DNA of 64,000 nucleotides from a virus (Duplodnaviria > Heunggongvirae > Uroviricota > Caudoviricetes). The DNA lies in IMG/VR virus record IMGVR_UViG_2622736468_000003; one strand, given 5' to 3'. Under the pieces are notes generated by a model. That model did not search any database. It saw nothing but the letters and a program-made list of their open reading frames with translations, and was not told where the DNA came from. Positions 8,879-64,000 of the stretch are shown here, piece by piece. The first letter of the stretch is position 1; the number at the start of each line of letters is the position of its first letter. Made by a program: the position numbers and the translations under genes.

Positions 8879-9961
8879 ATGCGTAATTACGCAACAATTT
8901 CACCTCAGTTCTGGTTAGGCGATACAGGGCGAAAACTAAGGAAGTCTGGTCCGGAATGTATGGTAGTGGCGTTGTATATGATGACCTCGCCTCATTCCAA
9001 TATGCTGGGCCTTTATTACCTGCCTGTTTTGTACATTGCTCACGAAACCGGACTTGCTCCTGAAGGGGCTTCTAAGGGGCTTCAAATGGCTTGCGAGGCT
9101 GGTTTTTGCAGCTATGACCATGATTCTGAGGTTGTATGGGTGCATGAAATGGCAGCATGGCAGGTTGGTGAATCGCTGAAACCTGGCGATAACCGTTGTG
9201 CTGGGGTAAGAAATGAATATTCCGCGTTGCTGGAAAATCCTTTTTTATCATCCTTTTATGATAGATATAAGGATGATTTCCACCTGGATGTCAGACGTGA
9301 ATCATGTCGGAAAATTGAAGCCCCTTCAGAGCCCCTTTCAAGCCAAGAACAGGAACAGGAACAAGAACAGGAAAGGGATAAAACCCTTCTGGTCCATGGC
9401 GAAAAAATCGCCACGGACCCGCAGGGGGATTTTTGTCCTGTTCTGACTGAACCTCCAGGACCAGCTGGCACGACACCGGAAGCAGATTCCGGGCGTTGTG
9501 TGCAGCAGGTGCTGATCGTCGAACCGGAGCAACAACGCCAACCGCAGCAGCCTGAAGCCGATTCCGCGATGAGCGGGAAGCCGATTGGGTTAACCCGGGC
9601 GATGCCGGGACCGTCTGCGGGACGAGTTGATTATCCTGACGTGTTCGAACGGGTATGGCGTGAATATCCGCATCGGGCAGGGTCAAACCCGAAGAAATCC
9701 GCGTTCAATGCCTGGAGGGCCAGATTACGCGAAGGGGTGTCACCGGATGTCGTGCTGGATGGCGTGAGGCGTTACGCAAGATACCTGGAGGCTACCGGGA
9801 AAGCGGGAACTGAATTTGTTCAGCAGGCATCGACGTTTTTTGGCCCGAACAGGAATTTCGAAAATCCGTGGTCGCTGCCGAAGGCTGGCGCAGTCAGCCT
9901 GCGTTGCGTGAATCACATTTCTGAACCGGACACCGAAATTCCGCCGGGTTTCAGGGGGTAA
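8879..9961 (+). CDS. replication initiation protein (O-like)
   Basis: 360 aa; position after cII; contains a third copy of the upstream repeat and an (EQ)n linker encoded by GAACAG repeats. Confidence 0.6.
   Translation: MRNYATISPQFWLGDTGRKLRKSGPECMVVALYMMTSPHSNMLGLYYLPVLYIAHETGLAPEGASKGLQMACEAGFCSYDHDSEVVWVHEMAAWQVGESLKPGDNRCAGVRNEYSALLENPFLSSFYDRYKDDFHLDVRRESCRKIEAPSEPLSSQEQEQEQEQERDKTLLVHGEKIATDPQGDFCPVLTEPPGPAGTTPEADSGRCVQQVLIVEPEQQRQPQQPEADSAMSGKPIGLTRAMPGPSAGRVDYPDVFERVWREYPHRAGSNPKKSAFNAWRARLREGVSPDVVLDGVRRYARYLEATGKAGTEFVQQASTFFGPNRNFENPWSLPKAGAVSLRCVNHISEPDTEIPPGFRG
9531..9617. repeat. third copy of the iteron-like repeat, inside the O-like gene
   Basis: shares CCAACCGCAGCAGCCTGAAGCCGATT and GCCGATTGGGTTAACCCGGG..CCGGGACCGTCTG with 8691..8845. 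Confidence 0.75.
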
Positions 9962-19267: not shown

Positions 19268-20831
19268 ATGGCATTTAAACACTATGATGTTGTCAGGGCG
19301 GCGTCGCCGTCAGACCTTGCGAAACGAATAACTCAAAAACTGAAGGAAGGGTGGCAGCCTTATGGTAGTGCGCTGATTTCGACAGCTGGTTATGGTGCGG
19401 AGTTCATCCAGCCAGTTGTGAGTGAGGGGAGCATCTCATCACCAGAGGAGCCAGGCAACCGTCCGACGACCTCAGCGCCTTCTGTTGCGCCAGAATATTA
19501 CTATGTGATCGCGCTTGCTGGTCAGTCCAATGGTATGTCATACGGTGAGGGACTGCCATTACCGGATACATTCGACAGCCCTGATCCACGTATTAAACAG
19601 TTAGCGCGTCGCAGTACGGTGACACCGGGCGGTGCAGCATGCAAATATAACGACATCATTCCGGCGGACCATTGTCTGCATGATGTGCAGGACATGAGCC
19701 GTCTTAACCATCCGAAAGCGGACCTGTCAAAGGGGCAGTACGGAACCGTGGGGCAGGGGCTGCATATCGCCAAAAAACTGCTGCCGTTTATACCGGCGAA
19801 TGCGGGCATTCTGCTGGTTCCGTGCTGTCGTGGTGGTTCAGCGTTCACCACCGGAGCTGATGGCACATACAGTGACGCGAGTGGCGCCTCGGAGAATTCA
19901 ACCCGCTGGGGTGTGGACAAGCCGCTGTATAAGGACCTTATCGGTCGAACAAAAGCGGCACTGGAGAAGAACCCGAAAAATGTGCTGTTTGCCGTGGTGT
20001 GGATGCAGGGGGAATTTGATTTTGGCGGTACGCCGGCAAATCATGCCGCACAGTTTGGTGCGCTGGTTGATAAATTCCGTGCAGACCTGGCGGATATGGC
20101 AGGCCAGTGCGTCGGTGGCTCTGCTGGCGGTGTTCCCTGGATATGCGGGGACACGACGTATTTCTGGAAGCAGAAGAACGAATCCACGTACCAGACGGTG
20201 TACGGCAGCTATAAAAATAAAACGGAAAAGAATATCCATTTCGTACCGTTCATGACCGATGAGAACGGGGTGAATGTGCCGACGAACAAACCGGAAGAAG
20301 ACCCGGACATTCCGGGTATCGGTTATTACGGTTCGAAATGGCGTGACAGCTCAGCCACCTGGACGTCACAGGACAGGGCGAGCCATTTCAGTTCATGGGC
20401 TCGCCGTGGGATTATTTCCGACCGTCTGGCAACGGCGATTCTGAGCTGCGCGGGTAAGTCTTCTGCGTTTGTTAATGGTACTGCCGGGGTGGTTGTTCCA
20501 GACAGACCGGTTACCACCTCAGAGTCTGTAATTTTTTACGATGCCAAAAAAGCTACAGACAATCAGCTGAAACCCTATGGCTGGGACGGTGTGTATGGCA
20601 GGCGCACACTGGTTGATGACAGCGGCAATAAAGCTCTGCGAATTGAGAAAAATAACAGCGCGAAATCCTGGTCAATGTACTGTGATATTGCTGCAGACAA
20701 GGCAAAACTTTTACTGGAAAAAGGCGGGGAAATTGCTGTCCGGTTTAAAATCCCCGAAAACGTCAATCTTGAGACAACCAGAAACAAGTATGCCTTTGGT
20801 TTGTACTGGCGAATAGCGGAATGGCCGGGTG
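19268..20831 (+). pseudogene. nanS-p: prophage sialate O-acetylesterase (NanS-p-like), 5' part interrupted by IS629
   Basis: GQSNGMSYGEG motif of the SGNH/DUF303 family; reading frame runs into the IS629 terminal repeat. Confidence 0.6.
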
Positions 20832-20885
20832 TGAACCGCCCCGGGAATCCTGGAGACTAAACTTCCTGAGAAAGAGGTAAACAGG

Positions 20886-21212
20886 ATGACTAAAAATACT
20901 CGTTTTTCCCCCGAAGTCCGTCAACGGGCAGTCCGTATGGTTCTGGAAAGTCAGAGCGAATATGACTCACAATGGGCGACAATTTGTTCCATTGCTCCAA
21001 AGATTGGCTGTACGCCGGAGACTCTGCGTGTCTGGGTTCGCCAGCATGAGCGGGATACCGGGGGCGGTGATGGAGGGCTCACCACCGCTGAACGTCAGCG
21101 TCTGAAAGAGCTGGAGCGTGAAAATCGTGAACTGCGCCGCAGTAACGATATCCTTCGCCAGGCTTCCGCTTATTTTGCGAAGGCGGAGTTCGACCGCCTC
21201 TGGAAAAAATGA
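20886..21212 (+). CDS. IS629 OrfA
   Basis: 108-aa HTH/leucine-zipper ORF typical of IS3-family orfA. Confidence 0.8.
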
Positions 21213-22099
21213 TGCCACTGCTGGATAAGCTGCGTGAGCAGTACGGGGTCGGACCGCTATGCAGCGAACTGCATATTGCCCCGTCAACGTATTACCACTG
21301 TCAGCAACAGCGACATCATCCGGATAAACGCAGTGCCCGTGCGCAGCGCGATGACTGGCTGAAGAAAGAGATACAGCGCGTATACGATGAAAATCACAAG
21401 GTATACGGTGTGCGTAAAGTCTGGCGTCAGTTGTTACGGGAAGGTATCAGAGTGGCCAGATGCACTGTGGCACGTCTCATGGCGGTTATGGGACTTGCCG
21501 GTGTTCTCCGGGGTAAAAAGGTCCGTACGACCATCAGCCGGAAAGCCGTTGCCGCAGGCGACCGCGTAAACCGTCAGTTCGTGGCAGAACGACCTGACCA
21601 GCTGTGGGTGGCTGATTTTACTTACGTCAGCACATGGCAGGGCTTCGTCTATGTGGCGTTCATCATTGATGTGTTTGCCGGATACATCGTGGGGTGGCGG
21701 GTCTCATCGTCCATGGAAACGACATTCGTGCTGGATGCACTGGAGCAGGCGTTATGGGCCCGTCGACCGTCCGGCACGGTCCATCACAGTGATAAAGGTT
21801 CTCAGTATGTATCGCTGGCCTACACACAGCGGCTTAAGGAAGCCGGATTACTGGCATCAACAGGAAGTACAGGCGACTCGTATGACAACGCGATGGCGGA
21901 GAGCATCAATGGTCTTTACAAAGCGGAGGTAATACACCGTAAGAGCTGGAAAAACCGGACAGAAGTGGAGCTGGCCACACTCACGTGGGTGGACTGGTAT
22001 AACAATCGACGATTGCTGGAAAGGCTGGGCCATACTCCTCCGGCAGAAGCAGAAAAAGCTTATTATGCTTCCATCGGAAACGATGATCTGGCAGCCTGA
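21209..22099 (+). CDS. IS629 OrfB (DDE transposase)
   Basis: 296 aa; overlaps orfA as in IS3-family elements. Confidence 0.8.
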
Positions 22100-22141
22100 G
22101 TTCACAGATAAAACACTCTCCAGGAAACCCGGGGCGGTTCA

Positions 22142-22492
22142 GGTGAGGGTGGTGAAGGCCATCTGAGTTCTTTCTTTGTCCAGACAGATAAAGCCAGTAT
22201 TAATGTTGCATACCATCATACAGTTAATCAACAAAAAGAACTTGGCACGTTTGGCGCATTCGACCATGACTGGCATACGCTTGCATTTAAATTTAAGGGC
22301 AGTAACAGCATTAATGTTACTCCGGTGCTCGATGGTGTGGATGGACAGGCGTTTGACCTGGTGAAATGGGCCAATACTGCTAATGGACTCAACAGGTTTG
22401 TCATTACGGATATTACAGGTAGTGCAGAAACCTACCCTGTACTTATTGATACGGTGGAAGTTAAAGCAAACAAAGCTGGAGCAGCCGCATAA
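22142..22492 (+). pseudogene. nanS-p: NanS-p-like esterase, 3' part
   Basis: in frame with 19268..20831 once IS629 and one GGTG copy are removed (~636-aa reconstructed ORF). Confidence 0.55.
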
Positions 22493-22630
22493 TTGCTAAA
22501 AAAAGCCGCCAGCGGCAGGAATGGAAGCTGGCGGAGGTAATCCCAATGGAGAATGTAAAGAAAAGATGCTTTCGTACATTGGTTTTTAAATGAAAACAAT
22601 TCTCATTGTCAACCATAACGGTAAGAAATT

Positions 22631-22813
22631 ATGACATTTATTCATCAGGTGATGCTGTACTTCTGTACGGCGGTCTGTGTGCTGTATCTTCTTTCGGGTG
22701 GGTACAGGGCTGTGCGCGATTTCTGGTGCAGGCAGATTGATAAAAGGGCCGCTGAGAAAATCAGCGCCAGTCAGTCAGCCGGAAGCAAGCCCGAAGAACC
22801 CGTTACTCCTTAA
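22631..22813 (+). CDS. hypothetical small membrane protein
   Basis: 60-aa ORF with hydrophobic N-terminus. Confidence 0.4.
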   Translation: MTFIHQVMLYFCTAVCVLYLLSGGYRAVRDFWCRQIDKRAAEKISASQSAGSKPEEPVTP

Positions 22814-22838
22814 CAACCCCTTTCAGCGAGAAAATCCC

Positions 22839-23084
22839 ATGTCAGAAATCACATCCCTGGTCACTGCTGAGGCAGTGAAGGAAGTCCTGCGCTCTGAAGA
22901 AGTCCGGAGCGCACTGAAACAGAAACTCCGCCAGAACCTTGAGTCGCGTCTTGATGCAGAAGTGGATGCCATTCTGGATGAGCTGCTGGGCGTACCAGCG
23001 GTTCCTGAGCCGGAAGGTATCGCGGGTGACGGGAGTGCTTCAGATGGCGGTGAACCTACACCTGACAGCGACATGATGATGTAA
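22839..23084 (+). CDS. hypothetical acidic protein
   Basis: internal ATG of track ORF 22677..23084. Confidence 0.4.
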
Positions 23085-23160
23085 GCATGCGCAAGGGACC
23101 ATCGGTGTGTGCCGGTGGTCTTTATATTGTTGTGAGCTTCCGGATTGCGGGAGACGGGGT

Positions 23161-23376
23161 ATGTACCAGATGGAAAAAATCACAACAGGTGTGTCATACA
23201 CCACGTCAGCGGTGGGAACGGGCTACTGGTTCCTGCAGTTGCTGGACAGGGTTTCCCCGTCTCAGTGGGCGGCAATAGGCGTGCTGGGGAGTCTGCTGTT
23301 TGGGCTGCTGACGTACCTGACTAACCTGTATTTCAAAATCAAAGAGGACCGGCGTAAGGCGGCGCGGGGAGAGTAA
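23161..23376 (+). CDS. S: holin, phage-21 S-type (pinholin-like), dual start
   Basis: [71 protein letters not shown]. Confidence 0.75.
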
Positions 23377-23380
23377 GCTG

Positions 23381-23914
23381 ATGAGCAGGAAATTCCGCTA
23401 TGGTTTATCAGCGGTCGTTCTGGCGCTGATTGCTGCGGGCGCTTCTGCGCCTGAAATCCTCGACCAGTTTCTTGACGAAAAAGAAGGTAACCACACCACG
23501 GCATACCGTGATGGTGCGGGTATCTGGACTATCTGCCGCGGTGCCATCCTGGTGGATGGCAAACCTGTCGTTCCGGGCATGAAGTTGTCGAAGGAAAAAT
23601 GCGACCGGGTTAACGCCATTGAGCGTGATAAGGCGCTGGCATGGGTGGAGAAAAACATCAGAGTGCCACTGACCGAACCGCAGAAAGCGGGCATCGCGTC
23701 ATTCTGTCCGTACAACATCGGGCCTTCGAAATGCTTCACCTCAACGTTTTACCGGAAACTGAACGCAGGAGACCGGAAAGGTGCATGTGCTGAAATCCGC
23801 CGATGGATATATGACGGCGGCAGGGACTGTCGGAACCGCTCAAATAACTGTTACGGGCAGGTATCGCGGCGTGACCAGGAGAGCGCGCTGGCGTGCTGGA
23901 GTATCGACAGATAA
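23381..23914 (+). CDS. R: SAR endolysin (T4-lysozyme-like)
   Basis: N-terminal signal-anchor-release segment, EG...D...T catalytic pattern, RRWIYDGG. Confidence 0.75.
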   Translation: MSRKFRYGLSAVVLALIAAGASAPEILDQFLDEKEGNHTTAYRDGAGIWTICRGAILVDGKPVVPGMKLSKEKCDRVNAIERDKALAWVEKNIRVPLTEPQKAGIASFCPYNIGPSKCFTSTFYRKLNAGDRKGACAEIRRWIYDGGRDCRNRSNNCYGQVSRRDQESALACWSIDR

Positions 23915-24008
23915 GCAGAATATTCTGCTGAAAAATGCCGTTGACCAACGCGAACGGATAACACGAAATCCTGCGAACTGGCAAAATTTAAGTGAGTAAA
24001 AGTAAAAA

Positions 24009-24045
24009 CCCCGTTTGTTGGCAGCAAGCGGGGTTTTGTGTTTCT
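24009..24045 (+). terminator. rho-independent terminator after the endolysin gene
   Basis: CCCCG...CGGGG hairpin followed by TTTTGTGTTT. Confidence 0.45.
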
Positions 24046-24134
24046 GACCTTGAATAAGGCAAGGGAGAAATTATGGGTAGGGAGGTTCTTTCCCTGTGAG
24101 GAAGTATAAAAGATTCTTTCTGAGGTTGTCCATT

Positions 24135-24248
24135 ATGAAAGGCATTGAGGTGGAGACGCCAGCAAGTCTGGATTTAACAAGAGCGGCAGCTTTTGCCATT
24201 CGTATTGTGGCAATTGCTGTTCTGGTCTGGGCAATCCGTTGGTGGTGA
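24135..24248 (+). CDS. putative 37-aa membrane peptide upstream of Rz
   Basis: stop 1 nt before Rz ATG; hydrophobic AAAFAIRIVAIAVLVWAIRWW; below track cut-off. Confidence 0.3.
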   Translation: MKGIEVETPASLDLTRAAAFAIRIVAIAVLVWAIRWW

Positions 24249-24249
24249 T

Positions 24250-24708
24250 ATGAATCGTGTGCTGTATGGCGTGCTTATTGTCCTGCTGCTTGGTTGTGGA
24301 TCGCTGTGGCTGGCAACAGACCATTACCGTGATAACGCCATCACCTACAAAGAGCAGCGAGATGATGCGAAGACAAAACTCAGCCAGGCGAACGCCACCA
24401 TTGCTGACATACAGCAGCGCCAGCGTGATGTTGCTGCACTCGATGCCAGATACACCAGGGAGCTTGCTGATGCTAACGCGACTATTGAAAGTCTCCGTGC
24501 TGATGTTTCTGCTGGGCGTAAGCGCCTGCAAGTCGCCGCCACCTGTGCAAAGTCAACGACCGGAGCCAGCGGCATGGGCGATGGAGAAAGCTCAGGACTT
24601 ACAGCAGATGCTGAACTCAATTATTACCGTCTCCGAAGTGGAATCGACAAGATAACCGCGCAGGTTAACTACCTGCAGGAGTACATCAGGATGCAATGCC
24701 TCGATTAA
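24250..24708 (+). CDS. Rz: Rz (i-spanin)
   Basis: N-terminal TM segment, coiled-coil; position after endolysin. Confidence 0.7.
   Translation: MNRVLYGVLIVLLLGCGSLWLATDHYRDNAITYKEQRDDAKTKLSQANATIADIQQRQRDVAALDARYTRELADANATIESLRADVSAGRKRLQVAATCAKSTTGASGMGDGESSGLTADAELNYYRLRSGIDKITAQVNYLQEYIRMQCLD
24503..24655 (+). CDS. Rz1: Rz1 (o-spanin lipoprotein) embedded in Rz in the +1 frame
   Basis: lipobox LLGVSAC followed by proline-rich KSPPPVQSQRPEP. Confidence 0.65.
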   Translation: MFLLGVSACKSPPPVQSQRPEPAAWAMEKAQDLQQMLNSIITVSEVESTR

Positions 24709-24788
24709 CAGAGCCAGCTCAATCGCTGGCCTTTTTTATGAGGAGAGATATAACCTGAATCAATGCCAGTGCATTATCAACAAATGGA

Positions 24789-25370
24789 TCACTGGGTAAG
24801 CTCGTTTGGTTTTAAATGTCCGTCGAGAATCAGATTGTGATTTTCCCGATGCAGAACCAGTGTGCCCATATAATCAGGTTTAAATCTCCATCCATTCATT
24901 TTTTTTGCAATTCTGGACAGACAGTGATTATGTGTGAAAATCACAGTAACATGATCTGATTTTGATATTTTAAGGATATTATTTACTGCGTTATCATCAC
25001 ATGTCGATATGTCCGGAATAGTTGCTGTCTTACCTCCCGAAAAAAAAGTGGCTGTCTGCATTGTTCGGAGTGTGTCTGTAGAATAGAGACTGTAGTATGG
25101 AAACATTCTTCTGAATTTATCTCCATATTGTTGAGCTTTGTTAGCTCCGTTTACTGTGATTCCCTCATGTGCTGAAAGACATATTCTTTGGGAGCGATCG
25201 CATCTTTCCCCATGCCGGATGAGAAAAATAATGGGATGTTTCTGGTTAATCTCAGTGACATCGTTCACATCAAGTCTGACTGGAGTTCTTACAATGTATA
25301 TGATAGATACAGAAACGATTATGACAAGTAAAAATATAAGAAGAGATTTTGTTAGCGTTTGATTTAACAT
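24789..25370 (-). CDS. Ais/PmrG-like histidine phosphatase (lipopolysaccharide core heptose(II)-phosphate phosphatase family)
   Basis: motifs LIRHGERCDRS, LYSTDTLRTMQTATFFSGGK, VIFTHNHCL, FKPDY matching recalled E. coli Ais; start taken at the internal ATG with AAGGGA RBS; AT-rich. Confidence 0.7.
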   Translation of the reverse strand: MLNQTLTKSLLIFLLVIIVSVSIIYIVRTPVRLDVNDVTEINQKHPIIFLIRHGERCDRSQRICLSAHEGITVNGANKAQQYGDKFRRMFPYYSLYSTDTLRTMQTATFFSGGKTATIPDISTCDDNAVNNILKISKSDHVTVIFTHNHCLSRIAKKMNGWRFKPDYMGTLVLHRENHNLILDGHLKPNELTQ

Positions 25371-25424
25371 ATAAATTCCCTTGTCTGTGTTGAAAATGGG
25401 CATTATTATGCGTAAATCTTATGT

Positions 25425-25438
25425 AATCCTTAAGGATT
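25425..25438. promoter_or_regulatory. 14-bp perfect palindrome AATCCTTAAGGATT upstream of the Ais-like gene
   Basis: contains CTTAAG, the PmrA/BasR half-site-like hexamer, with CATAAG 5 bp further on and CATAAT just beyond. Confidence 0.3.
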
Positions 25439-25973
25439 GTCTGACGTGGTGATATGACGCGAAATACAGTGGGTACACAGAATGCTGTGAACAACGACGA
25501 AATGGGCACTGGTAGCGGTACTGGTGCTTTTTTTTATTGGTTGGTTGCTCAAGTCTTGATAAAGCGCGTTAGCTTTTTGGTATTGCCTCTTAGGTCTGTA
25601 AAATTGCCGACGGTGTCCGGCAGTGCATGCAGGGCTGATCGTCTATGAGAACAGAATATATTGCTAAAAATGAAGTGTACGTCAATGCTTATAAAGCATG
25701 CAATTCTGTATTTCTAACTATTCAATAAAATAAATTCTTTCTGTCGCAGTGAATATACAAATGTTGATCAGCGCTCGATGTGGCGACGGGTTTCTATATC
25801 AGGAGACTTTGGCATTTATCCGCGAGGCAGCCTATCTGGTGCTGTAGTGGAATGAAGCGGATATAACCTAAATAAGGTTAAACATTAATCAGACATGGCT
25901 CTGCTGTGTGAAATCTGAAAATTTACAGCAGTCATTGTGCATCAGTTTTTAACAGAGAACGTCAGAAGGTGAC

Positions 25974-26070
25974 ATGGCAAAGCTGGACTGGAAAAAGCTG
26001 GAGCAGGCATTTCGACGCGAACATGTCAAAACCGGCATAAAGCTTCAGGACTGGTGCCGTCAGAACAATA
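25974..26070 (+). pseudogene. terminase small subunit, N-terminal 32 codons only
   Basis: MAKLDWKKLEQAFRREHVKTGIKLQDWCRQNN then IS66 terminal repeat. Confidence 0.5.
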
Positions 26071-26107
26071 GTAAGCGTGCAGCAAGAACCGTATTGACGG
26101 GGATGTG

Positions 26108-27646
26108 TTATTCAGTCGGCAGTGCTACGCGCCAGGGGAGCAGTTCGCCGACCCGGTTTATCGGCCAGTCGGCTATGACGTCAAGGACATAGCGGAGGTA
26201 GCTTTCTGGCTCCACTCCGTTCAGTTTGCACGTCCCGATCAGGCTGTACAGCAGCGCTCCCCGCTCTCCTCCATGATCCGAACCGAAGAACAGGTAGTTT
26301 TTGCGGCCCAGACTGACCATCCGCAACGCATTTTCAGCGATGTTATTGTCCGCCTCAGCCCAGCCATCATCTGCATAGTACGTCAGCGCCGGCCACTGGT
26401 TCAGGGCGTATGCGAACGCTTTCGCCAGTTCTGAGTGTCGCGACAGGGTTTTCATCTTTTCACGCAGCCAGCTTTCCAGGGATTTCAGCAGCGGTTTCGT
26501 TTTCAACTGACGTTCGGCAAGGCGCTGTTCCGCCGTCATTCCCCTTATCTCTGCCTCGATGGCGTACAGTTCGCCGATCCGTTTCAGCGCTTCCTCCGTC
26601 AGGGCTGACGGGGTGCGAACGTGCACATCGTGGATTTTACGGCGGGCGTGAGCCCAACAGGCGGCTTCCGTTATCCGGCCATCCCGGTACAGCTCGTTGA
26701 ACCCGGCGTATGCATCCGCCTGCAGTACACCACTGAACCCCGCAAGATGGGTCTGCGGATGGATGCCTTTTCTGTCCGGGCTGTAAGCGAACCACACCGC
26801 CGGCGCCAGCGTTGACCCGGCGTTACGGTCGTCACGAACATACGCCCACAACCGCCCGGTCTTCGTTTTCTTATTGCCTGGCAACAGCACCGGGACAGGC
26901 GTGTCATCAACATGGAGCTTACCGTCAGTCAGCACATAGCCATGAAGCGCCTCTTCCAGCGGAGACAGCAGCCGGCAGCATGCATCCACCCAGCCCGACA
27001 GCAGTGAACGGCTCAGCTCCACACCTTGCCGGCCGTATATTTCTGACTGGCGATACAGCGGGGTGTGCTCTGCATACTTCGAGGTCAGCACGCGGGCCAG
27101 CAGCCCCGGTCCGGCGATACCCCGCTCGATGGGCCGCGAAGGTGCAGGTGCCTGCACGATGGCATCGCACTGAGTACAGGCATGTTTTTCCCGTACCGTC
27201 CGGATAACCCGGAAGGCGCTACGCATCAACTCCAGCTGTTCGGCGGTATCCTCGCCCAGATAACTCAGTGAACCGCCGCAGTTCGGGCAGCACGGCGCCG
27301 CAGGCAACAGTCGCTTTTCGTCACGGGGTAGTGATTCAGGGAACGGCTTACGGGTGCGGGTCTGACGCAACGGACGCTGTACTGCCGGGTCATACACCCT
27401 ACCAGTCAGCGTATCGCTCTCTTTCTGAAGCCGGTTCAGATCGGCTTCCATTTGTGCGATACGGCGGGAGACTTTTTCGGAACGACTGCCGAAGTTCATC
27501 CGGCGGAGTTTATCCAGCTGCGCCTGCAGATGGTCTATTTCGCGCTCCCGGTTGCTCAGCTTTTCCTGCAGGGCGTGGATCAGCGCTTCCTGTTCGGCCA
27601 GGCGCTGTTTCAGCAGGAAGATGTCGTCAGAAGAGATGTCGTTCAT
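26108..27646 (-). CDS. IS66 transposase TnpC (intact, 512 aa)
   Basis: single ORF spanning both frames of the copy-1 fragments. Confidence 0.8.
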
Positions 27647-27695
27647 AAGCCCGTATTTTACCGGGCTTATTCTGTGACAACCAGGATAAAGAGAT

Positions 27696-28043
27696 TTACA
27701 GCATGGTCAGGGAGGTCAGCAGCCGCTTAGGCTGTCGCCAGTCGATACCTTCCAGCAGCATCGCCAGCTGCGCCTGTGTAAGGAACACTTTGCCATCACG
27801 GGCTGACGGCCAGGCGAAGCGCCCACGCTCCAGCCGTTTGGTCAGGAGGCACAGTCCGTCACCGGTGGACCACAGCAGTTTAACCTGACTGCCGCTGCGG
27901 CCCCGGAAAATGAAAACATGGCCGGACATGGGATCGTCTTTCAGCGCCGTCTGTACTTTCGCAGCCAGGCCGTTGAAGCCATTTCTCATATCGGTGATAC
28001 CGGCAACCAGCCAAATTTTGGTCCCGGAAGGTAACGGGATCAT
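27696..28043 (-). CDS. IS66 Orf2 (TnpB-like)
   Basis: identical to 3545..3892. Confidence 0.8.
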
Positions 28044-56984: not shown

Positions 56985-57176
56985 ATGTTTAATGAAGAAA
57001 AAGTTGCGCAAATGGCAGCGTATTTGCTGAAAAAGCATGGCGGATCTATGCGTTTCATTAAGCTGATGAAGCTGATGTATCTCTCTGACCGCAAAGCAAT
57101 GGAGTCTTTAACCGGGAAGGGGAGAGGTTTGAATGCTCCCCCACAATTCCCCGGCATCAAATCTCCATGCAGGTGA
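56985..57176 (+). pseudogene. N-terminal remnant of a DUF4065 (Panacea-domain)-like gene
   Basis: MFNEEKVAQMAAYLLKKHGGSMRFIKLMKLMYLSDR resembles the N-terminus of that family as recalled; truncated at 63 codons. Confidence 0.3.
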
Positions 57177-57262
57177 ACTATTTTACCCCCAGCGGCAAAT
57201 CGCAAAAACAATCAGTGCGATCGAAATGGCAGCCACTACAATTGCAAATGCTTCAGGCTAGG

Positions 57263-58207
57263 TCATTGGCGTACCTCCTTCGGCGGTTCTGGTAGCGGCA
57301 TCCAGTGGGTTACTTCTTTGAGATGCAGGTCTTCGCCATCACCGTCATCCCAAGTGGGATTGCCATCATTAAACCAGTCGCCATATACGCCGACCTGAGT
57401 GTTGGGGATGCTTGGTGGGTAGTTGTTTTTAAAGTCAGCTGCTAACACATAGTATTGTCGCTCTCCCATTTCTGGCATTCGATCACTACAGCTTATCCAA
57501 CCATCCGGAGTTACCGGAACTGGCGGAACGGCTGTTTGCTCTCGAACGTCATTAGTCGCTATCGGTTCTGCTGCCAACTGACTGGCATATTTGTTAATGG
57601 TAACGATAAGCTCTTGCTCAGCCTCATCCAGACAATCACCGATACCTCGCCTGTCACCGTCAAAATCATCGAAATCGGCACGAATCCTGGCAACCTTCAG
57701 GATTGCGGACAACACCTCACTAGGAATTGCCGGATAGTTGGTTGACGTTTCCGCGATTTCCCGAAAATTATTGGTTGACGAATTCTTGTTTTCCCGAAAG
57801 TTTCCGGACTGAAGCATGGCGGCGCGGCAGGCGTTCCATATTTCGGCAGCAATATCGCGCTCGCTATCGGTTAATTTGTACGTGGAAACATAGCCAGAGA
57901 GCATTTCTACGTTTTCCGGAGTTGCTTCTTCCGGCACTACCGGCGCTGGAGGGGCGGCGTAAATGCCCTCTATCACTAAATGTTTGCGCTCAAAATCATC
58001 TGGCTCTCGATGATATACGTAACTCCAATCACCAAGGTTATCATTGCGCCTGCAACGGAAACCTATCGGCTCGGCTTCCAGCGCTGCCAGAGCAATTCGT
58101 GCCAGTTCTTCCGCTTCTTCTGCTGGCAGTACAACGTTGCTACCAGGTCCGTATGTTTCGCGCCACTGCTGGATTGTCAGCAGGCGTTCTTTGGTAATAG
58201 TGGTCAT
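57263..58207 (-). CDS. DUF551-like phage protein (paralog of 11971..12555)
   Basis: shares GNFRENKNSSTNNFREIAETSTN and DGWISCSDRMP...WMPLPEPPKEVRQ modules. Confidence 0.55.
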   Translation of the reverse strand: MTTITKERLLTIQQWRETYGPGSNVVLPAEEAEELARIALAALEAEPIGFRCRRNDNLGDWSYVYHREPDDFERKHLVIEGIYAAPPAPVVPEEATPENVEMLSGYVSTYKLTDSERDIAAEIWNACRAAMLQSGNFRENKNSSTNNFREIAETSTNYPAIPSEVLSAILKVARIRADFDDFDGDRRGIGDCLDEAEQELIVTINKYASQLAAEPIATNDVREQTAVPPVPVTPDGWISCSDRMPEMGERQYYVLAADFKNNYPPSIPNTQVGVYGDWFNDGNPTWDDGDGEDLHLKEVTHWMPLPEPPKEVRQ

Positions 58208-58209
58208 AG

Positions 58210-58401
58210 CTATTTCACCTTAATCTCAACATTTCGCAGCTTTAGCTCTACTGGCAGGTCTGACTTTCCGGTTAATGCTAATGCGAGATTTTCTGGAGTA
58301 ATGAGAGCAGTTATTGTTTTCCCCCTCGCCAGACGAATAATCATTCGTATCTCGCAATCGTCACATGCTCCCGGTCGAACAATTGAGATTTGTCCGTCCA
58401 T
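58210..58401 (-). CDS. hypothetical protein
   Basis: track ORF, 63 aa, tightly packed in the leftward operon. Confidence 0.4.
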   Translation of the reverse strand: MDGQISIVRPGACDDCEIRMIIRLARGKTITALITPENLALALTGKSDLPVELKLRNVEIKVK

Positions 58402-58402
58402 C

Positions 58403-59011
58403 TCACTCTCCTTTGATGCGAATGCCAGCGTCAGACATCATATGCAGATACTCAACTGCATCCTGAACCCATTGACCGCCAATCCCGTAATAGCGATGCG
58501 TAATGATGTCGATAGTTACTAACGGGTCTTGTTCGATTAACTTCCGCAGAAACTCTTCCAGGTCACCAGTGCAGTGCTTGATGACAGGAGTTTTCCCAGG
58601 ATGGCGAACAACAAGAAACTGATTTCCGACTTCACGGACTTCGTTGCTTTCCAGTTCTGCAATGCGCTTCTCTGCGGCTTCCAGCTCAACTCTCAGCTTC
58701 CCTACTGTTAGCGCAATATCCTCGTTCTCCTGGTCGCGTGATTTGATGTATTGCTGGTTTCTTTCCCGTTCATCCAGCAGTTTCTGCACTAATTTAGGGT
58801 TGAAAGCTGCGATAAATTCTGCGTTGTTCTCTGCATTTTTCTGGTCGTCAAAGCCAGGCCATTTGATAATGTCTCCGCAACGTTCATCCCCCGGCGTATG
58901 CACCGCATATGTACCAGTGTCCGGCGAGATGAATGCACGCCATTCGCCCTGTGTTGCCTGTTGCGCTATCTTACGTAAGGTAGCTAATTGTTCGCTGGTA
59001 AAAGTCATCAT
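58403..59011 (-). CDS. Ea22/Ead-like protein
   Basis: ATQGEW...NAEFIAAFNP...LLDERERN pattern; start taken at the ATG overlapping the upstream stop. Confidence 0.45.
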   Translation of the reverse strand: MMTFTSEQLATLRKIAQQATQGEWRAFISPDTGTYAVHTPGDERCGDIIKWPGFDDQKNAENNAEFIAAFNPKLVQKLLDERERNQQYIKSRDQENEDIALTVGKLRVELEAAEKRIAELESNEVREVGNQFLVVRHPGKTPVIKHCTGDLEEFLRKLIEQDPLVTIDIITHRYYGIGGQWVQDAVEYLHMMSDAGIRIKGE

Positions 59012-59361
59012 GGTTGCATCTCCCGTTCTTCTGCCCACTTCCGAAGCCCTTCAATCTCACCATTACGAGCTATCAGCTCGCGACACAGTCTTTCGTTTTC
59101 ATCCAGTAGTGCCAGCACAGTAGCCGGATTGGCTGCGGCGATGAATTCAGCATTGGCCTGCTGTTCCATTTGGAAATCTTCATCGAAACCGCTTTCAGGA
59201 TGTGCTCCTTCAATTCTGCAAATGGGAATATATCCAGCAGCCTCGCGATGAATTAGTGCATCATCACCATCAAATCGGTTCTCTCCATATTCGAGCGACC
59301 ACTCACCACGCGTTGCTTTTTCTGCCTTTTCACGCAGTACCTGATAGTTAATCTCGCTCAT
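59008..59361 (-). CDS. Ea22/Ead-like protein (paralog)
   Basis: ATRGEW...NAEFIAAANP...LLDENERL pattern. Confidence 0.45.
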   Translation of the reverse strand: MSEINYQVLREKAEKATRGEWSLEYGENRFDGDDALIHREAAGYIPICRIEGAHPESGFDEDFQMEQQANAEFIAAANPATVLALLDENERLCRELIARNGEIEGLRKWAEEREMQP

Positions 59362-59632
59362 TTTTCTCTTCGCTCCGGTATACAAGAATTACAACGTCAC
59401 CTCTGCTAATTACGCGAGCTGGACCTCCTGGCTCCATGCTGTCAATCCCGAAGGCTTCGGAAAACGCATTCATTGCCTTCTGGCGTTGATCCTGCTTACG
59501 GCATTTATTCCATTTTTTCAGTAACAACAGCGATAGCCACCGCCCGGCGCAGAACATAATGTAAAAATAACCAAGAAGCGCCAGACCTGTGTTGAGGGCC
59601 GTATCGATCGTTATAGTGGTGTCTATGCTCAC
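59348..59632 (-). CDS. hypothetical membrane protein
   Basis: track ORF with hydrophobic N-terminal half. Confidence 0.4.
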   Translation of the reverse strand: MSIDTTITIDTALNTGLALLGYFYIMFCAGRWLSLLLLKKWNKCRKQDQRQKAMNAFSEAFGIDSMEPGGPARVISRGDVVILVYRSEEKNERD

Positions 59633-59850
59633 TTCACACCTCTCTGTTTGTTGATAAGTTCAATATCCTGCTGGCAACTGGCGCAAGCTCGGCATCCACG
59701 AACAGCCAGGCGTCGCCGCTCATCTATCGGATCGCCACACTCGCAACAATGAGTAGCAGATGGGGCATTACTATCGGATTTGTATTTTTGCAGGGAGAGA
59801 TTGCGCTGCAATTCTTCGATTTCAGCGGCATTGTCGATGATATCTGCCAT
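59629..59850 (-). CDS. TraR/DksA-family C4 zinc-finger protein
   Basis: CCECG...x17...CRACASC. Confidence 0.6.
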   Translation of the reverse strand: MADIIDNAAEIEELQRNLSLQKYKSDSNAPSATHCCECGDPIDERRRLAVRGCRACASCQQDIELINKQRGVK

Positions 59851-59871
59851 TTTCCTTTCCTTCAGGCATGA

Positions 59872-59895
59872 AAAAAGGAGCCGAAGCTCCTTTAG
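59872..59895 (-). terminator. rho-independent terminator (inverted copy of the 15822..15847 hairpin)
   Basis: GGAGCttcgGCTCC with T-run on the minus strand. Confidence 0.55.
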
Positions 59896-59897
59896 TT

Positions 59898-60527
59898 TCA
59901 GAATTCGAATTGCCTTGCCCGCAGGCTTTTCAGCATTGGCATGGCTCGTTGGATAACGGAACTTGACATGTCGAGACGTGTTACTTCCCTCAGTAACGCA
60001 TCTCTGTTCTTCGTCACCATGTAGATGGTCTCAAACGCAATGTCATACAGCTTGTTCGTGTATGAGGAGTTCAGCTCTTTCATGATGGGATACAGGTGTT
60101 TGCTGAGGTCCTGGGCTTTTTCCATCCAGAGCTGCATGTAGCAAAGGAGGATGATTTCCTCGGCTGTGAATTGCGGCTGTGGTTCTGCTTGTACTGGCTG
60201 AATGTTGCGAAGTTTCTTTTCGCACTCGATGAAGTAGCGGCGGATCTGGCGACCTTTTTCGTTACGTTCAACCATCGCAAGCTCTTTGGCTGTGTCGAGG
60301 GTGAGGTGGTATTCCTTGCGGCGGCGGCCTGGAGTTTTCGCCAAATTTGGCGAAAATAGAATGTAGTCTAAATTTTCTACGAATCCATACTCGTTTAGCC
60401 TGGCCCGTATCCAGTTAGAAAAATCTTTACCTACCTCTAAAAATCCATGCAAATCACGCGCGTTCACCAGAAGCGTAGGTTCATTTGAGATTGTACCTTC
60501 AAACACAGGGATGAGTTGAGTGGTCAT
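59898..60527 (-). CDS. antirepressor (AntA-type N-domain + KilA-C-like C-domain)
   Basis: GGAGG RBS; N-domain ...LVNARDLHGFLEV...YHLTLDTAKELAMVERNEKGRQIRRYFIECE; C-terminal ~95 aa shared with 15146..15817. Confidence 0.6.
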   Translation of the reverse strand: MTTQLIPVFEGTISNEPTLLVNARDLHGFLEVGKDFSNWIRARLNEYGFVENLDYILFSPNLAKTPGRRRKEYHLTLDTAKELAMVERNEKGRQIRRYFIECEKKLRNIQPVQAEPQPQFTAEEIILLCYMQLWMEKAQDLSKHLYPIMKELNSSYTNKLYDIAFETIYMVTKNRDALLREVTRLDMSSSVIQRAMPMLKSLRARQFEF

Positions 60528-60776
60528 GATGACCTCCTTTGGCTTTTTTCGAGAAATGCCACCACAAGATGTGGTGCCGGGAGGCTCGAAACGGCCCAAA
60601 AGATACCGCGGACTTATTCCCCTTGCGGGTGTTGTATTCGTCGCCCTCCCGACATTGATCGGGGATGTGACCGCACACTGTGCTATCACTGAATAACAGG
60701 CATAAAAAATCCAACACTGACGGGGTTGGTTTAATCCGCTTTTGGGAGGTTTTCGAGGCCTCGGCGCGGAGTATAG

Positions 60777-61064
60777 TCAGTATTGGACGCAGTCGTCAAC
60801 CATCGCAAGCTCTTTGGCTGTGTCGAGAGTTAGGTGGTAGTCCTTGCGGCGGCGATCACCTCCTCGACCTTTGGTTTGCCCATTTTGGCAAATCAAAATA
60901 TAGTCCAGGCTTTCAACGAATCCATATTCAGCAATGCGCTCTTTAACCCAGTGCGCGAACATTCTGCCCACACCAAGAAAAGAGTGTAGATCACGAGCGT
61001 TAACTAGAAGAGTTGTTTCGTTGTCGATAGTGCCGTTGAATACGGGGATGAGTTGACTGGTCAT
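60777..61064 (-). pseudogene. truncated duplicate of the AntA-type antirepressor N-domain
   Basis: 95-codon ORF with the same RBS/start context; ends ...LTLDTAKELAMVDDCVQY where it runs into the upstream region of the full copy. Confidence 0.5.
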
Positions 61065-61479
61065 GATGACCTCCTTATTTGTTTAGTTTATAACCGCCAG
61101 TTAGTAGCTGGCGGTCGGGTGTCAACTGAGCCAAATAAGAAGCTCTGGGCATATTCCCCTTGCGGGTGTTGTATTACGCCTCTCCACCCGACCTTTGTAC
61201 GGATGTAACTATGCCAAATTGCAGGCATAAAAAAGCCGCAAAGCTATCGGGTGCGGAGACCGCTTATTTGTTCAGTGCGATCAGTATGCGATAGCTCTGG
61301 CGGATTTGTCAAATCGTGCAGTAACATCCTTTTCTTCCTTGCCATTTCTCAATGATGACAAAGGGTGGATTCGGATTGGTATTGGGACAAAAGTGAGACA
61401 CACAAAGCTTTGCATCGGCTTACAAAGCTTTGCATGTTTTTCAATGTTGGGACGTGTGAGCGCAGAAATGACGGGCTAT

Positions 61480-61593
61480 CTAATTGATTTTAAACGATAC
61501 GTAACCAACTTTAAAATCTTTGCACGCCAGTTCGCAGGTTTTACAGCCAGTACAGCGGCTGGAATCGATAAAAAATCCATATTGTGTGGTCAT
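61480..61593 (-). pseudogene. ynfG: ynfG (DMSO-reductase-family Fe-S subunit), 5' remnant truncated at the prophage junction
   Basis: MTTQYGFFIDSSRCTGCKTCELACKDFK then divergent sequence and stop after 37 codons; intact YnfG is ~205 aa. Confidence 0.7.
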
Positions 61594-61603
61594 GGGCTAC
61601 TCC

Positions 61604-64000
61604 TTAAACCTTTTCGATCTGGACAAGATTGCTGTGCGACGGGTTTCCCTTTGCCAGCGGTGAAGGGCGGTGCGAGGTCAGAATATTGATACTGCCGCCG
61701 TGATCGACCCGGTCACCAAACATATCCGCTTTAAGCCAAGCACCTTGCCCGATGGCGGTAACGCCAGGCAGAATACGCGGAGTCACTTTTGCGGCAATCA
61801 GCATTTCTCCATTATTGTTAAATACCCGCACGGTATCGCCATGACGGATACCGCGTGCCTGAGCATCAATGGGGTTGATCCACACCTCTTGTGGGCAGGC
61901 CTGCTGTAACACATCAATATTGCCGTAGCTGGAGTGGGTACGCGCTTTGTAGTGGAAGCCCGTTAACTGCAGTGGATAGGTTTTCCGCAGGGGATCGTCC
62001 CAGCCATCAAAACCTGGGGTATACGCAGGAAGGGGATGAATAATTTCATCTTTTTTCAATTCCCAGGTATCTGCAATCTTCGCCAGTCGTTCAGAATAAA
62101 TTTCGATTTTCCCCGAAGGTGTTTTCAACGGGTTTGCCTGTGGATCTTCACGGAATGCGCGGAAAGCGACGTAGTGTTCTTCCGGGCATTTTTTCTTAAA
62201 GATCCCGGTCGTTTTCATCTCCTCGTAGTCGGGCATCTCAGGGTTACGTTCCTTCGTTTTCGCATGGAGATATTTGATCCATTCATGCTGACTGCGACCT
62301 TCAGTAAAGGTTTGATAAACGTCCGGTCCTAAGCGTTTGGCGACTTCACTCAGCATCCAGTAGATGGGTTTGCGTTCAAATTTTGCTGAGGTTGCGGGTT
62401 GGGCGAGGATCACATAGCCCATATTCCCGGCAGATTCATGAGAGATAAGGTCTTCTTGCTCTGTTGGCATCAGGTCGGGCAACAGGATATCGCAATACTT
62501 AGCCGAGGCCGTCATGAAGTGGTCAATGCCAACAATCATCTCGCACTTGCTGTCATCCTGAAGCACCTCATGGGTGTGATTGATGTCGCCATGTTGATTG
62601 ATCAATGTGTTACTGGCGTAGCACCATAAAAACTTGATGGGGACATCCAGTTTTTCTTTTCCACGAACACCATCACGGGTCGCGGTCATTTTCGTACCAT
62701 GGTCGATGGCATCTGTCCATGTAAAAACGGAAATCTGCGTTTTAACAGGATTCTCGAGCATCGGGAACCATTCTACCCCCAGATCCCAGCTACCTTCGCG
62801 TACACCTGAGTTGCCGCCGTTTATGCCGACGTTACCGGTAAGAACGGAAAGCATGGCAATAGCGCGGGACGTTTGTTCGCCGTTGGAGTGTCGTTGTGGC
62901 CCCCAACCCTGACAAATATAAGCAGGTTTTGCTGAACCGATCTCTCGTGCCAACTGGATAATTTTTTCTGCCGGGATGCTGGTGATTTTTGCTGCCCATT
63001 CCGGCGTTTTAGCTATGCCGTCAGGCCCTTCGCCCAGAATATAGGCTTTATAATGCGCGTTACGTGGTGCGTTGGCGGGCAGCGTTTTTTCATCGTAACC
63101 AACACAATATTTGTCGAGAAATGGCTGATCGACCATGTTTTCAGTAATCAGTACCCAGGCAATCGCACAGGCCAGTGCGCCATCGGTGCCAGGGCGAATG
63201 GGCAGCCATTCATCTTCACGCCCGGCAGCTGTGTCGTTATAACGTGGATCGATGACGATCATGCGTGCGTTTGAACGTTCGCGGGCTTGCTCGACGTAGT
63301 AAGTGACACCACCGCCGCTCATCCGTGTTTCTGCCGGGTTATTTCCGAACATAACGACCAGTTTCGTATTGGCGATATCATCCGGGCTGTTGCCATCATT
63401 GGCACCGAACATATAACTCATTGCGGCACTGATCTGTGCGGTACTGTAGCTGCCATAGCGACTGAGAAAACCACCACATGAGTTCATCAGACGGTACGGG
63501 ACGTTTGAGTTGGTGATGTTTCCGCCATCTACGCCTGTTCCGTACAGGACATGTACAGCCTCATTGCCGTAATCTTTAAGGATCCGCCGAAGATTATCAC
63601 TGATGGTATCCAGGGCTTCGTCCCAACTTATCCGTTCAAATTTACCTTCACCGCGCTTGCCGACGCGCTTCATGGGATATTTCAACCTATCAGGATGATT
63701 CATCCGTCGGCGGATAGAGCGCCCGCGTAAACACGCTCGAACCTGATGATTACCGTAGACGTCGTCACCTGTCGTATCAGATTCCACCCAGTACACGGTG
63801 TCATCTTTCACATGCAAACGTAACAGACAGCGGCTCCCGCAGTTAACGGTGCAGGAACTCCAGACCGCTTTCTCTTCTACCGGAGCCTGTGCCGCCCGGA
63901 CCATTTGGGAAAATGGCAGAGTGAAAGCACTGCTTGCCAGCGCAAGACTGCCAAGTGCGGAGGTTTTCATCAGACTTCTACGGCTGATTTCAGCCTTCAT
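61604..64000 (-). CDS. ynfF: YnfF, DMSO-reductase-family molybdopterin catalytic subunit (5' end beyond the window)
   Basis: 798-aa ORF with twin-arginine signal SRRSLMKTSALGSLALA and CTVNCGSRC cluster; ynfG start follows 10 nt downstream. Confidence 0.8.
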   Translation of the reverse strand: MKAEISRRSLMKTSALGSLALASSAFTLPFSQMVRAAQAPVEEKAVWSSCTVNCGSRCLLRLHVKDDTVYWVESDTTGDDVYGNHQVRACLRGRSIRRRMNHPDRLKYPMKRVGKRGEGKFERISWDEALDTISDNLRRILKDYGNEAVHVLYGTGVDGGNITNSNVPYRLMNSCGGFLSRYGSYSTAQISAAMSYMFGANDGNSPDDIANTKLVVMFGNNPAETRMSGGGVTYYVEQARERSNARMIVIDPRYNDTAAGREDEWLPIRPGTDGALACAIAWVLITENMVDQPFLDKYCVGYDEKTLPANAPRNAHYKAYILGEGPDGIAKTPEWAAKITSIPAEKIIQLAREIGSAKPAYICQGWGPQRHSNGEQTSRAIAMLSVLTGNVGINGGNSGVREGSWDLGVEWFPMLENPVKTQISVFTWTDAIDHGTKMTATRDGVRGKEKLDVPIKFLWCYASNTLINQHGDINHTHEVLQDDSKCEMIVGIDHFMTASAKYCDILLPDLMPTEQEDLISHESAGNMGYVILAQPATSAKFERKPIYWMLSEVAKRLGPDVYQTFTEGRSQHEWIKYLHAKTKERNPEMPDYEEMKTTGIFKKKCPEEHYVAFRAFREDPQANPLKTPSGKIEIYSERLAKIADTWELKKDEIIHPLPAYTPGFDGWDDPLRKTYPLQLTGFHYKARTHSSYGNIDVLQQACPQEVWINPIDAQARGIRHGDTVRVFNNNGEMLIAAKVTPRILPGVTAIGQGAWLKADMFGDRVDHGGSINILTSHRPSPLAKGNPSHSNLVQIEKV

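Follow-up and report, generated by a model that had tools for sequence, protein, structure and literature searches.

A prophage-borne Ais-like phosphatase gene with a conserved predicted PmrA box in its promoter

We analyzed a minus-strand gene of a prophage within a 64,000-nt stretch of viral DNA (Caudoviricetes; IMG/VR record IMGVR_UViG_2622736468_000003), hereafter the window. The gene lies between the lysis gene Rz and the terminase gene terS and encodes a histidine phosphatase related to the chromosomal Ais/PmrG enzymes, and its promoter carries a predicted PmrA/BasR box whose layout is conserved among diverged alleles. The new result is this promoter with its conserved predicted box. The protein call is not new, as RefSeq already names the exact protein “LPS core heptose(II)-phosphate phosphatase” (LPS, lipopolysaccharide). 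Within the limited library that could be searched, the literature yielded no account of an Ais paralogue carried by a phage or of a PmrA box in front of one. A preliminary description of the locus had raised regulation by PmrA and called it speculative; the proposal has since gained comparative support, as the layout is kept in eight alleles and matches three promoters of Escherichia coli K-12. Overall, we lean toward a reading in which a PmrA/BasR-activated phage moron would supply an inner-membrane-anchored periplasmic phosphatase acting on LPS core phosphate. Judged from sequence, PmrA control of the promoter appears likely, while the LPS-core substrate, proposed by analogy, is at best slightly favored; PmrA binding, membrane topology, substrate and benefit to the lysogen are all points that we infer.

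PmrA boxes consist of two XTTAAY-type hexamers placed 5 nt apart that replace the −35 element, with the protein contacting the TAA bases; the hexamers are CTTAAG and xTTAAT in Salmonella and CTTAAT and CCTAAG in Klebsiella pbgP (PMC3973317, PMC10570014). Read on the gene strand, the moron promoter runs CTTAAG (25434..25429), GATTA, CATAAG (25423..25418), ATTTACGCAT and AATAAT (25407..25402), followed by 19 nt, AAGGGA, 6 nt and the ATG at 25370. The order of CTTAAG, 5 bp and CATAAG that had been pointed out earlier thus holds on this strand, and it fits the published sequence definition of a PmrA box, with half-site 2 deviating at positions 2 and 6 and keeping its TAA. As controls, we aligned three PmrA/BasR-dependent promoters of K-12 (Table 1). 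The 10-nt spacing from half-site 2 to the −10-like hexamer is our own reading of these K-12 promoters, the literature giving only an inferred position of ~−37 to −21 for Klebsiella pbgP. A consensus promoter scan found no σ70-type −35/−10 promoter upstream of the gene on its strand.

Table 1 Promoter layout in K-12 controls and in alleles of the moron (−10-like hexamers are our sequence readings).
Promoter	Protein identity to window allele	Half-site 1	Spacer	Half-site 2	Gap	−10-like hexamer
arnB (K-12)		CTTAAG	GTTAA	GTTAAT	N10	TAAAAT
eptA (K-12)		CTTAAG	GTTGG	CTTAAT	N10	GAGCAT
pmrR (K-12)		CTTAAG	GTTCA	CTTAAT	N10	CATACT
moron (window)	100%	CTTAAG	GATTA	CATAAG	N10	AATAAT
L105	76%	CTTAAG	GATTA	CATAAG	N10	AATAAT
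L006	72%	ATTAAT	TGCCT	CATAAG	N10	TATAAT
L108	67%	CTTAAG	GATTC	CTTAAG	N10	AATAAT
L129 (plasmid)	65%	ATTAAG	CGTTA	TTTAAT	N10	AACAGT
L119	64%	CTTAAG	GATTT	TTTAAG	N10	AATAAT
L111	53%	GTTAAG	ATTTT	CTTAAT	N10	TATATT
L130	50%	GTTAAG	ATTTC	CTTAAT	N10	CATAAT

Scanning both strands of the whole window with a small matrix built from four known PmrA boxes, which themselves score 18-23 bits, returned the moron box as the best match (13.8 bits vs 11.7 for the next). By count, the loose pattern TTAAK-N7-TAAK is close to expectation in the window (2 vs 1.3 expected); what appears to stand above chance is the position of the box, its strand, its spacing to the −10 hexamer and its conservation in relatives.

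Upstream regions of diverged alleles were taken from prophages and one plasmid. In all eight alleles, the window included, the box starts 64-71 nt 5′ of the ATG, and TTAA of half-site 1, TAA of half-site 2, the 5-nt and 10-nt spacings and an xAxxxT pattern at −10 are invariant; the column consensus at −10 is AtAaT. The flanks of the box are mostly unalignable between alleles, and mean information is 1.37 bits per column in the box vs 0.58 in the 30 nt upstream. In first-order Markov (Markov-1) simulations, a box followed by N10 and xAxxxT arose with a probability of 1e-4 to 2.5e-3 per 113-nt upstream region, values that cannot simply be multiplied, as the eight lineages share ancestry and are not fully independent. 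In these alignments, the retention of PmrA-contact bases and spacings reads as a clear selective footprint.

The same data bear on whether the box and the palindrome that overlaps it are chance features of an AT-rich intergenic region, with the gene constitutively low or silent. The near-expected count of the loose pattern, the abundance of 14-bp palindromes in the window (ten) and the existence of an allele without half-site 1 (L004) would all fit such an origin. However, eight of eight diverged lineages keep the box, N10, the −10 hexamer and the ATG distance while their flanks diverge, the moron box is the top matrix match in the window, and there is no alternative −35/−10 promoter upstream on the gene strand. 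A chance origin is already disfavored by these sequence comparisons, and we consider it highly improbable.

The preliminary description had drawn attention to a perfect 14-bp palindrome, AATCCTTAAGGATT. It is present, but it appears incidental, made up of half-site 1 and chance flanks, and the conserved unit is the direct repeat. We rejected the palindrome as an operator: the window contains ten perfect 14-bp palindromes vs 4.2 expected in Markov-1 simulations (1/60 of which reached ten), and relatives retain only CCTTAAGG or less. Others are at 8880, 12788, 14790, 18490, 23915, 30779, 40212, 40315 and 60339, some of which might serve phage regulation as operators or binding sites of another kind.

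The box could also be read by a regulator other than PmrA. Another or an additional member of the OmpR/PhoB family, such as QseB, could bind the repeat, or silencing by H-NS with counter-silencing could be the main control. QseB is the closest PmrA paralogue and is cross-phosphorylated by PmrB, and the cassette has 37% guanine-cytosine (GC) content, typical of H-NS targets. Tandem hexamers 11 bp apart over the −35 position are the general binding mode of the OmpR/PhoB family (PMC10570014), and bioRxiv 10.1101/2023.04.06.535820 reports cross-talk between QseBC and PmrAB in E. coli. Nevertheless, the conserved TTAA of half-site 1 and TAA of half-site 2 are the bases that PmrA contacts (PMC10570014), and half-site 1 is a perfect CTTAAG, as in K-12 arnB, eptA and pmrR. 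We consider binding by another or an additional regulator, or H-NS as the main control, decidedly unlikely.

The protein itself is, by its family profile, a member of the Ais/PmrG-like subfamily. It scored 201.9 bits against the Ais subfamily model of NCBIfam (PRK15416, NF011945; cutoff 142; profile positions 14-199 of 201) and 28.7 bits against Pfam His_Phos_1 (PF00300; cutoff 21.7), and BLASTP aligned it with K-12 Ais at 43% identity over 158 residues (E = 7e-44). Its score against the PmrG equivalog NF052369 was 113.2 bits, below the cutoff of 170. The earlier call of an Ais/PmrG-like phosphatase therefore stands for the Ais subfamily and falls short of the PmrG equivalog, and we treat the protein as a paralogue rather than as PmrG itself. 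Because it misses this cutoff, its specificity for heptose(II) phosphate is putative. PHROGs holds no family for the protein.

The sequence blocks that had been described as matching E. coli Ais do align with K-12 Ais by BLASTP, block LYSTDTLRTMQTATFFSGGK with its K-12 counterpart and VIFTHNHCL and FKPDY being identical in both proteins, and the histidine-phosphatase signature RHGERCDRS is encoded as had been described. In alignments of 25 and of 32 homologues, R52, H53, E55, R56, C57, D58, R59, S60, C64, H147 and C150 were invariant, and R102 and H149 were invariant or nearly so. The RHG motif, second histidine and arginines, read from the sequence, and the modeled fold agree with branch 1 of the histidine phosphatases. 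An AlphaFold2 model built on the homologue alignment (mean predicted local distance difference test score (pLDDT) 93, predicted template-modeling score (pTM) 0.85) places a helix at residues 2-26 ahead of an alpha/beta domain, and Foldseek returned 217 PDB matches at E <= 1e-3, headed by phosphoserine phosphatases, RosC and SixA (branch 1). There is no solved structure of a close relative in the PDB, the best sequence match being fructose-2,6-bisphosphatase (E = 0.007).

The N-terminal hydrophobic segment noted earlier is borne out by the modeled helix and by a Kyte-Doolittle 19-residue maximum of 3.06 (residues 9-27), vs 2.02 for the Ais signal peptide. Members of the mobile-element clade likewise keep a hydrophobic stretch with RTP after it, and inspection by eye found no AXA-type cleavage site in the moron protein. 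Hydropathy and model together suggest that the helix is probably an uncleaved signal anchor, and by analogy to Ais the catalytic domain would lie in the periplasm.

Alternatively, the enzymes of the mobile-element clade could act on something other than LPS heptose(II) phosphate in the periplasm or membrane, be it a phosphate elsewhere in the core or lipid A, a phosphorylated polysaccharide of the surface or a phosphohistidine in a protein, with a role in surface exclusion of phages or conjugative pili, or in signaling that alters fimbrial expression. The score below the PmrG equivalog cutoff points this way, as do a clade distinct in sequence and N-terminus (an anchor then RTP vs the cleavable Ais signal peptide), homologues on 1383 conjugative plasmids (named traG in at least one record), homologues by fimbrial operons and AraC regulators (one of them named ‘transcriptional activator AfrS’), and a good match to the compact fold of the phosphohistidine phosphatase SixA (template-modeling score 0.70 on the target). 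In addition, a plain duplicate seems redundant in a species in which 5413/5426 genomes carry ais. Against this, the Ais subfamily is the best family match by far, the catalytic and cysteine pattern is common to Ais, and an LPS substrate would suit a gene co-regulated with the PmrA regulon, which modifies LPS. We regard a different substrate as unlikely.

According to PMC8129183, which cites Nishino et al. 2006, Salmonella PmrG removes the heptose II phosphate and is part of a PmrA-controlled LPS program. By extension, we propose the following course of events for the moron. In the lysogen, phosphorylated PmrA/BasR would bind CTTAAG-N5-CATAAG in the place of the −35 element, 10 nt 5′ of AATAAT, and recruit σ70 RNA polymerase to this −35-less promoter. 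Transcription would begin ~25 nt 5′ of the ATG at 25370 and run in antisense to the late operon of the phage. The 193-aa product would insert into the inner membrane by its uncleaved helix, with a phosphatase domain facing the periplasm that includes four conserved cysteines, His53 (the RHG nucleophile), His147/149, Arg52, Arg56/59 and Arg102. By homology to PmrG, the product would remove phosphate from the inner-core heptose region of LPS, making the surface less negatively charged and less able to bind metals, in addition to the effect of chromosomal ais. The host would in this way switch the moron on together with its own outer-membrane remodeling genes. The signals that activate PmrB are Fe3+, Al3+ and mildly acidic conditions.

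A PmrA-constitutive E. coli lost no polymyxin B resistance when its pmrG was deleted (PMC8129183), and the polymyxin phenotype of the moron may for this reason be weak. By analogy, metal tolerance or altered phage or pilus docking are more plausible phenotypes than polymyxin resistance.

Several points weigh against the PmrA-driven, LPS-directed phosphatase that we favor. On the promoter side, these are the shared ancestry of the eight lineages described above, the half-site 2 CATAAG, which differs from XTTAAT at two positions while keeping the TAA bases, and the −10 assignments, which are our own sequence readings, K-12 controls included, rather than mapped starts. Furthermore, one allele with 83% identity, L004, has CAAAAA for half-site 1 and a 1-nt longer spacer before the −10 hexamer, with its coding sequence (CDS) intact; PmrA control is therefore not obligatory, and L004 should, from its sequence, have lost it as a natural variant. 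No box was seen in paralogues by fimbrial operons, AraC regulators, EAL genes or a SPATE gene, or in those on virulence plasmids. On the protein side, the missed PmrG equivalog cutoff and only 43% identity to Ais mean that the substrate could differ, the topology rests on hydropathy, a model and analogy to periplasmic Ais, and we found no binding, expression or enzyme data for the moron protein in the literature.

The L004 site (5930..5975) lies in a lambda-like Nu1/gpA prophage, and L004 is the closest diverged allele. In another locus, L117, the region 5′ of the gene has been replaced by an insertion sequence (IS) element.

As for the gene model (Table 2), the minus-strand open reading frame (ORF) spans 24789..25403 (204 aa), and an internal start at 25370 gives 193 aa, both being read in the sequence. 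The ATG at 25370 is most likely the true start, because RefSeq uses the 193-aa form and AAGGGA stands 6 nt upstream; a GGA core occurs at the matching Shine-Dalgarno position in most alleles. We rejected the start at 25403, whose ATG overlaps the predicted −10 hexamer, given the 193-aa start in RefSeq; in the loci that we inspected, homologues have no upstream in-frame ATG or give a product of 193-196 aa. On the gene's own strand, σ70-like matches (9-10/12 positions) also occur inside the phosphatase CDS at 25300..25327, 24978..25007 and 24910..24938, probably as a by-product of AT-rich composition.

Table 2 Features of the moron locus and its surroundings (window coordinates).
Feature	Position	Strand	Remark
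P21-type holin	23107..23376
Lysozyme	23381..23914
Rz (PF03245)	end at 24708
Cargo segment between Rz and terS	24702..25887	.	~1.2 kb; holds the moron and its surroundings
Terminator-like hairpin and T-run	24713..24739 (hairpin 24713..24730)	+	after Rz, 50 nt from the moron stop codon
Ais-like histidine phosphatase CDS	24789..25370	-	193 aa; 100% identical to WP_000934362.1
THNHC, second catalytic histidine motif	24921..24935	-	codons 146-150; read from sequence
RHGERCDRS, catalytic RHG motif	25191..25217	-	codons 52-60; His53 presumed nucleophile
N-terminal hydrophobic helix	25293..25367	-	codons 2-26; hydropathy and model
Shine-Dalgarno AAGGGA	25377..25382	-	6 nt 5′ of ATG 25370
Predicted −10 hexamer AATAAT	25402..25407	-	exactly 10 nt past half-site 2; sequence only
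Predicted PmrA/BasR box CTTAAG-GATTA-CATAAG	25418..25434	-	direct repeat in place of −35
Perfect 14-bp palindrome	25425..25438	.	half-site 1 and chance flanks
terS N-terminal stub	starts 25974		first ~30 codons; interrupted by IS66-type element
IS66-family element	26108..28441		three ORFs; breaks terS ~100 nt past its start

By its genomic slot, the gene reads as a phage moron, as had been described. Homology to the Shiga toxin (Stx) 2 phage P13374 of O104:H4 ends at 24701, the end of Rz, and returns at 25888, upstream of terS, with P13374 carrying a Rha-like regulator gene in the same slot instead. The core of the insert (24732..25503) has 37% GC vs 50% for the window, and the moron lies on the strand opposite to the late genes. 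The low GC, the neighbors and the minus-strand ORF agree with the initial account of an AT-rich gene between Rz and terS. Relatives with 50-85% protein identity keep the same position and orientation in prophages with different modules, downstream of three lysis modules (lambda-type lysozyme and Rz; GH108 endolysin and two holins; M15 peptidase and two holins) and upstream of at least four packaging modules (Nu1/gpA; DUF1441 and TerL; Terminase_2/Terminase_6; Stx-phage terminase).

Low GC is accompanied by a predicted promoter of the gene's own; the gene strand showed no convincing terminator. The hairpin after Rz is doubtful as the moron's terminator, because its T-run is only on the plus strand. 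A second ‘terminator’ hairpin and T-run (25504..25529) was rejected as part of the moron, as it falls in the signal-peptide coding part of a decayed lipoprotein gene. This remnant of a ~60-aa gene (25454..25648, plus strand; phrog_7528, function unknown) is on the late-operon strand, and in the window copy the frame is shifted by one additional T at 25528, and TAG stands where relatives have CAG. Intact copies with an LLAGC or LLVGC lipobox are present in L006, L108 and L119; the lipoprotein gene accompanies the moron in several prophages, with two copies in L119.

The prophage belongs to the short-tailed Stx-phage group, and its gene arrangement recurs in O104:H4 and in the Stx1 phage GER2 (Oslovirus). 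It is defective, because the IS66 element breaks terS and an IS3-family transposase follows a truncated esterase gene, while the moron and its promoter are intact. Downstream of the IS66 element are terL, a P22-like portal gene and a capsid gene. The IS3-family transposase (21209..22099) lies 3′ of the truncated nanS-p-type esterase gene (19268..20860), and the right end of the window (57000..64000) holds phage antirepressor and Ea22-like genes, then chromosomal ynfF. To this right end, the best-matching complete E. coli genomes align only piecewise, at ~95.6% identity, so that none of the complete E. coli genomes in the collection is the host; from its IS load, the host could be a Shigella or an E. 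coli rich in IS elements. An Rfam search of 22000..26200 found no known RNA element at E <= 0.1.

Among 5426 complete E. coli genomes, this allele is present in 43, mostly O104:H4, and any moron allele detectable at the DNA level in 83. RefSeq has the exact protein in Stx1 phage GER2 as well as in these 43 genomes, and 1 of 50,697 phage records carries the moron. The moron therefore adds a further copy to chromosomal ais, which is near-universal (5413/5426).

Homologues extend beyond prophages. A ~45%-identical histidine phosphatase is encoded in ~1440 plasmid records (1383 predicted conjugative) from Escherichia, Salmonella, Shigella and Klebsiella; at least one record calls it traG. On the IncI1 plasmid pESBL of O104:H4, TraG bears the annotation LPS core heptose(II)-phosphate phosphatase, and a transposon screen found that transfer could largely do without it (PMC4288162). 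Other non-prophage paralogues with 43-70% identity (L117, L122, L124, L010; P0066) lie by CS1-type or chaperone-usher fimbrial operons, after a pair of AraC-family regulators, by EAL-domain genes or near a SPATE autotransporter, and one paralogue cluster has the source name ‘transcriptional activator AfrS’. A PmrA box was found in none of the non-prophage paralogues with an intact upstream region. By sequence, the moron clade differs from Ais in its anchor and in its spread on mobile elements, and the plasmid and fimbrial-island paralogues suggest a broader mobile-element family of periplasmic phosphatases. We offer, as a quite unlikely extension, that the anchored phosphatases of prophages, conjugative plasmids (traG) and fimbrial or virulence islands form one family with a task other than the PmrG reaction as such, which edits core or surface phosphates and thereby changes the docking of rival phages, conjugative pilus adhesins or the cell's own fimbriae, with the prophage branch having captured a PmrA box so that envelope stress sets the timing.

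If confirmed, the PmrA-controlled moron would be a clear case of phage cargo that answers directly to a host two-component system governing LPS charge, in a connection preserved while the gene was extensively reshuffled between unrelated prophage backbones. The PmrA/BasR regulon of pathogenic E. coli would also gain a horizontally mobile member, with the O104:H4 outbreak lineage and a Stx1 phage among the carriers. The locus would offer a simple test system for why a cell that already bears ais needs a second, anchored phosphatase, be it for metal tolerance, gut fitness or resistance to phage and plasmid docking. A single member of the protein family has been characterized, and no structure has been solved for it.

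Among known systems, lambda bor-type morons resemble this gene in several respects. The slot directly after the lysis genes, shown here for the moron, is shared, and so are the orientation against the late operon, an own promoter, AT-richness and an envelope product. Bor differs in belonging to an unrelated family and in being a lipoprotein linked to serum resistance, and bor is not known to have a response-regulator box. The plasmid TraG homologue is likewise a histidine phosphatase on a mobile element, ~45% identical over residues 40-184 and sometimes with the same annotation, but its gene is part of an operon for conjugative transfer.

Chromosomal Ais (E. coli b2252) and PmrG (Salmonella) share with the moron protein the PRK15416 family, RHxERCDRS, THNHC, the conserved cysteines, a length of ~200 aa, an N-terminal export or anchor segment and a link to a PmrA box. 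Ais has a cleavable-looking signal peptide (…GTHA/AWSS), whereas in the moron protein the helix is longer and more hydrophobic and leads into RTP, and ais is a core gene, whereas the moron family is rare. Most of what a scan of species-representative genomes brought up were orthologues of chromosomal ais and distant homologues from Pseudomonas. The regulatory layouts differ too: ais has one box in common with the divergent arnB promoter, ~150-200 nt from the ais start and oriented for arnB, whereas the predicted box of the moron belongs to that gene only and stands 64 nt from the ATG in an arnB/eptA-type layout. In Escherichia, Citrobacter and Salmonella (L002 1790..1850, L015-L032), the box common to ais and arnB is a single one, ATTAAyTTAACCTTAAG on the ais strand, and on the ais side no 10-nt spacing separates it from a −10 hexamer.

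The promoters of arnB (pbgP), eptA (pmrC) and pmrR share with the moron promoter CTTAAG, the 5-nt spacer, TAA in half-site 2, N10 and the lack of a −35 element. The moron promoter differs from them in having CATAAG rather than xTTAAT as half-site 2, in lying on a prophage and in driving a single gene, and its matrix score falls below those of the sites from which the matrix was built. As the N10 layout is missing on the ais side, the phage promoters would therefore resemble the arnB/eptA type more than the promoter of ais.

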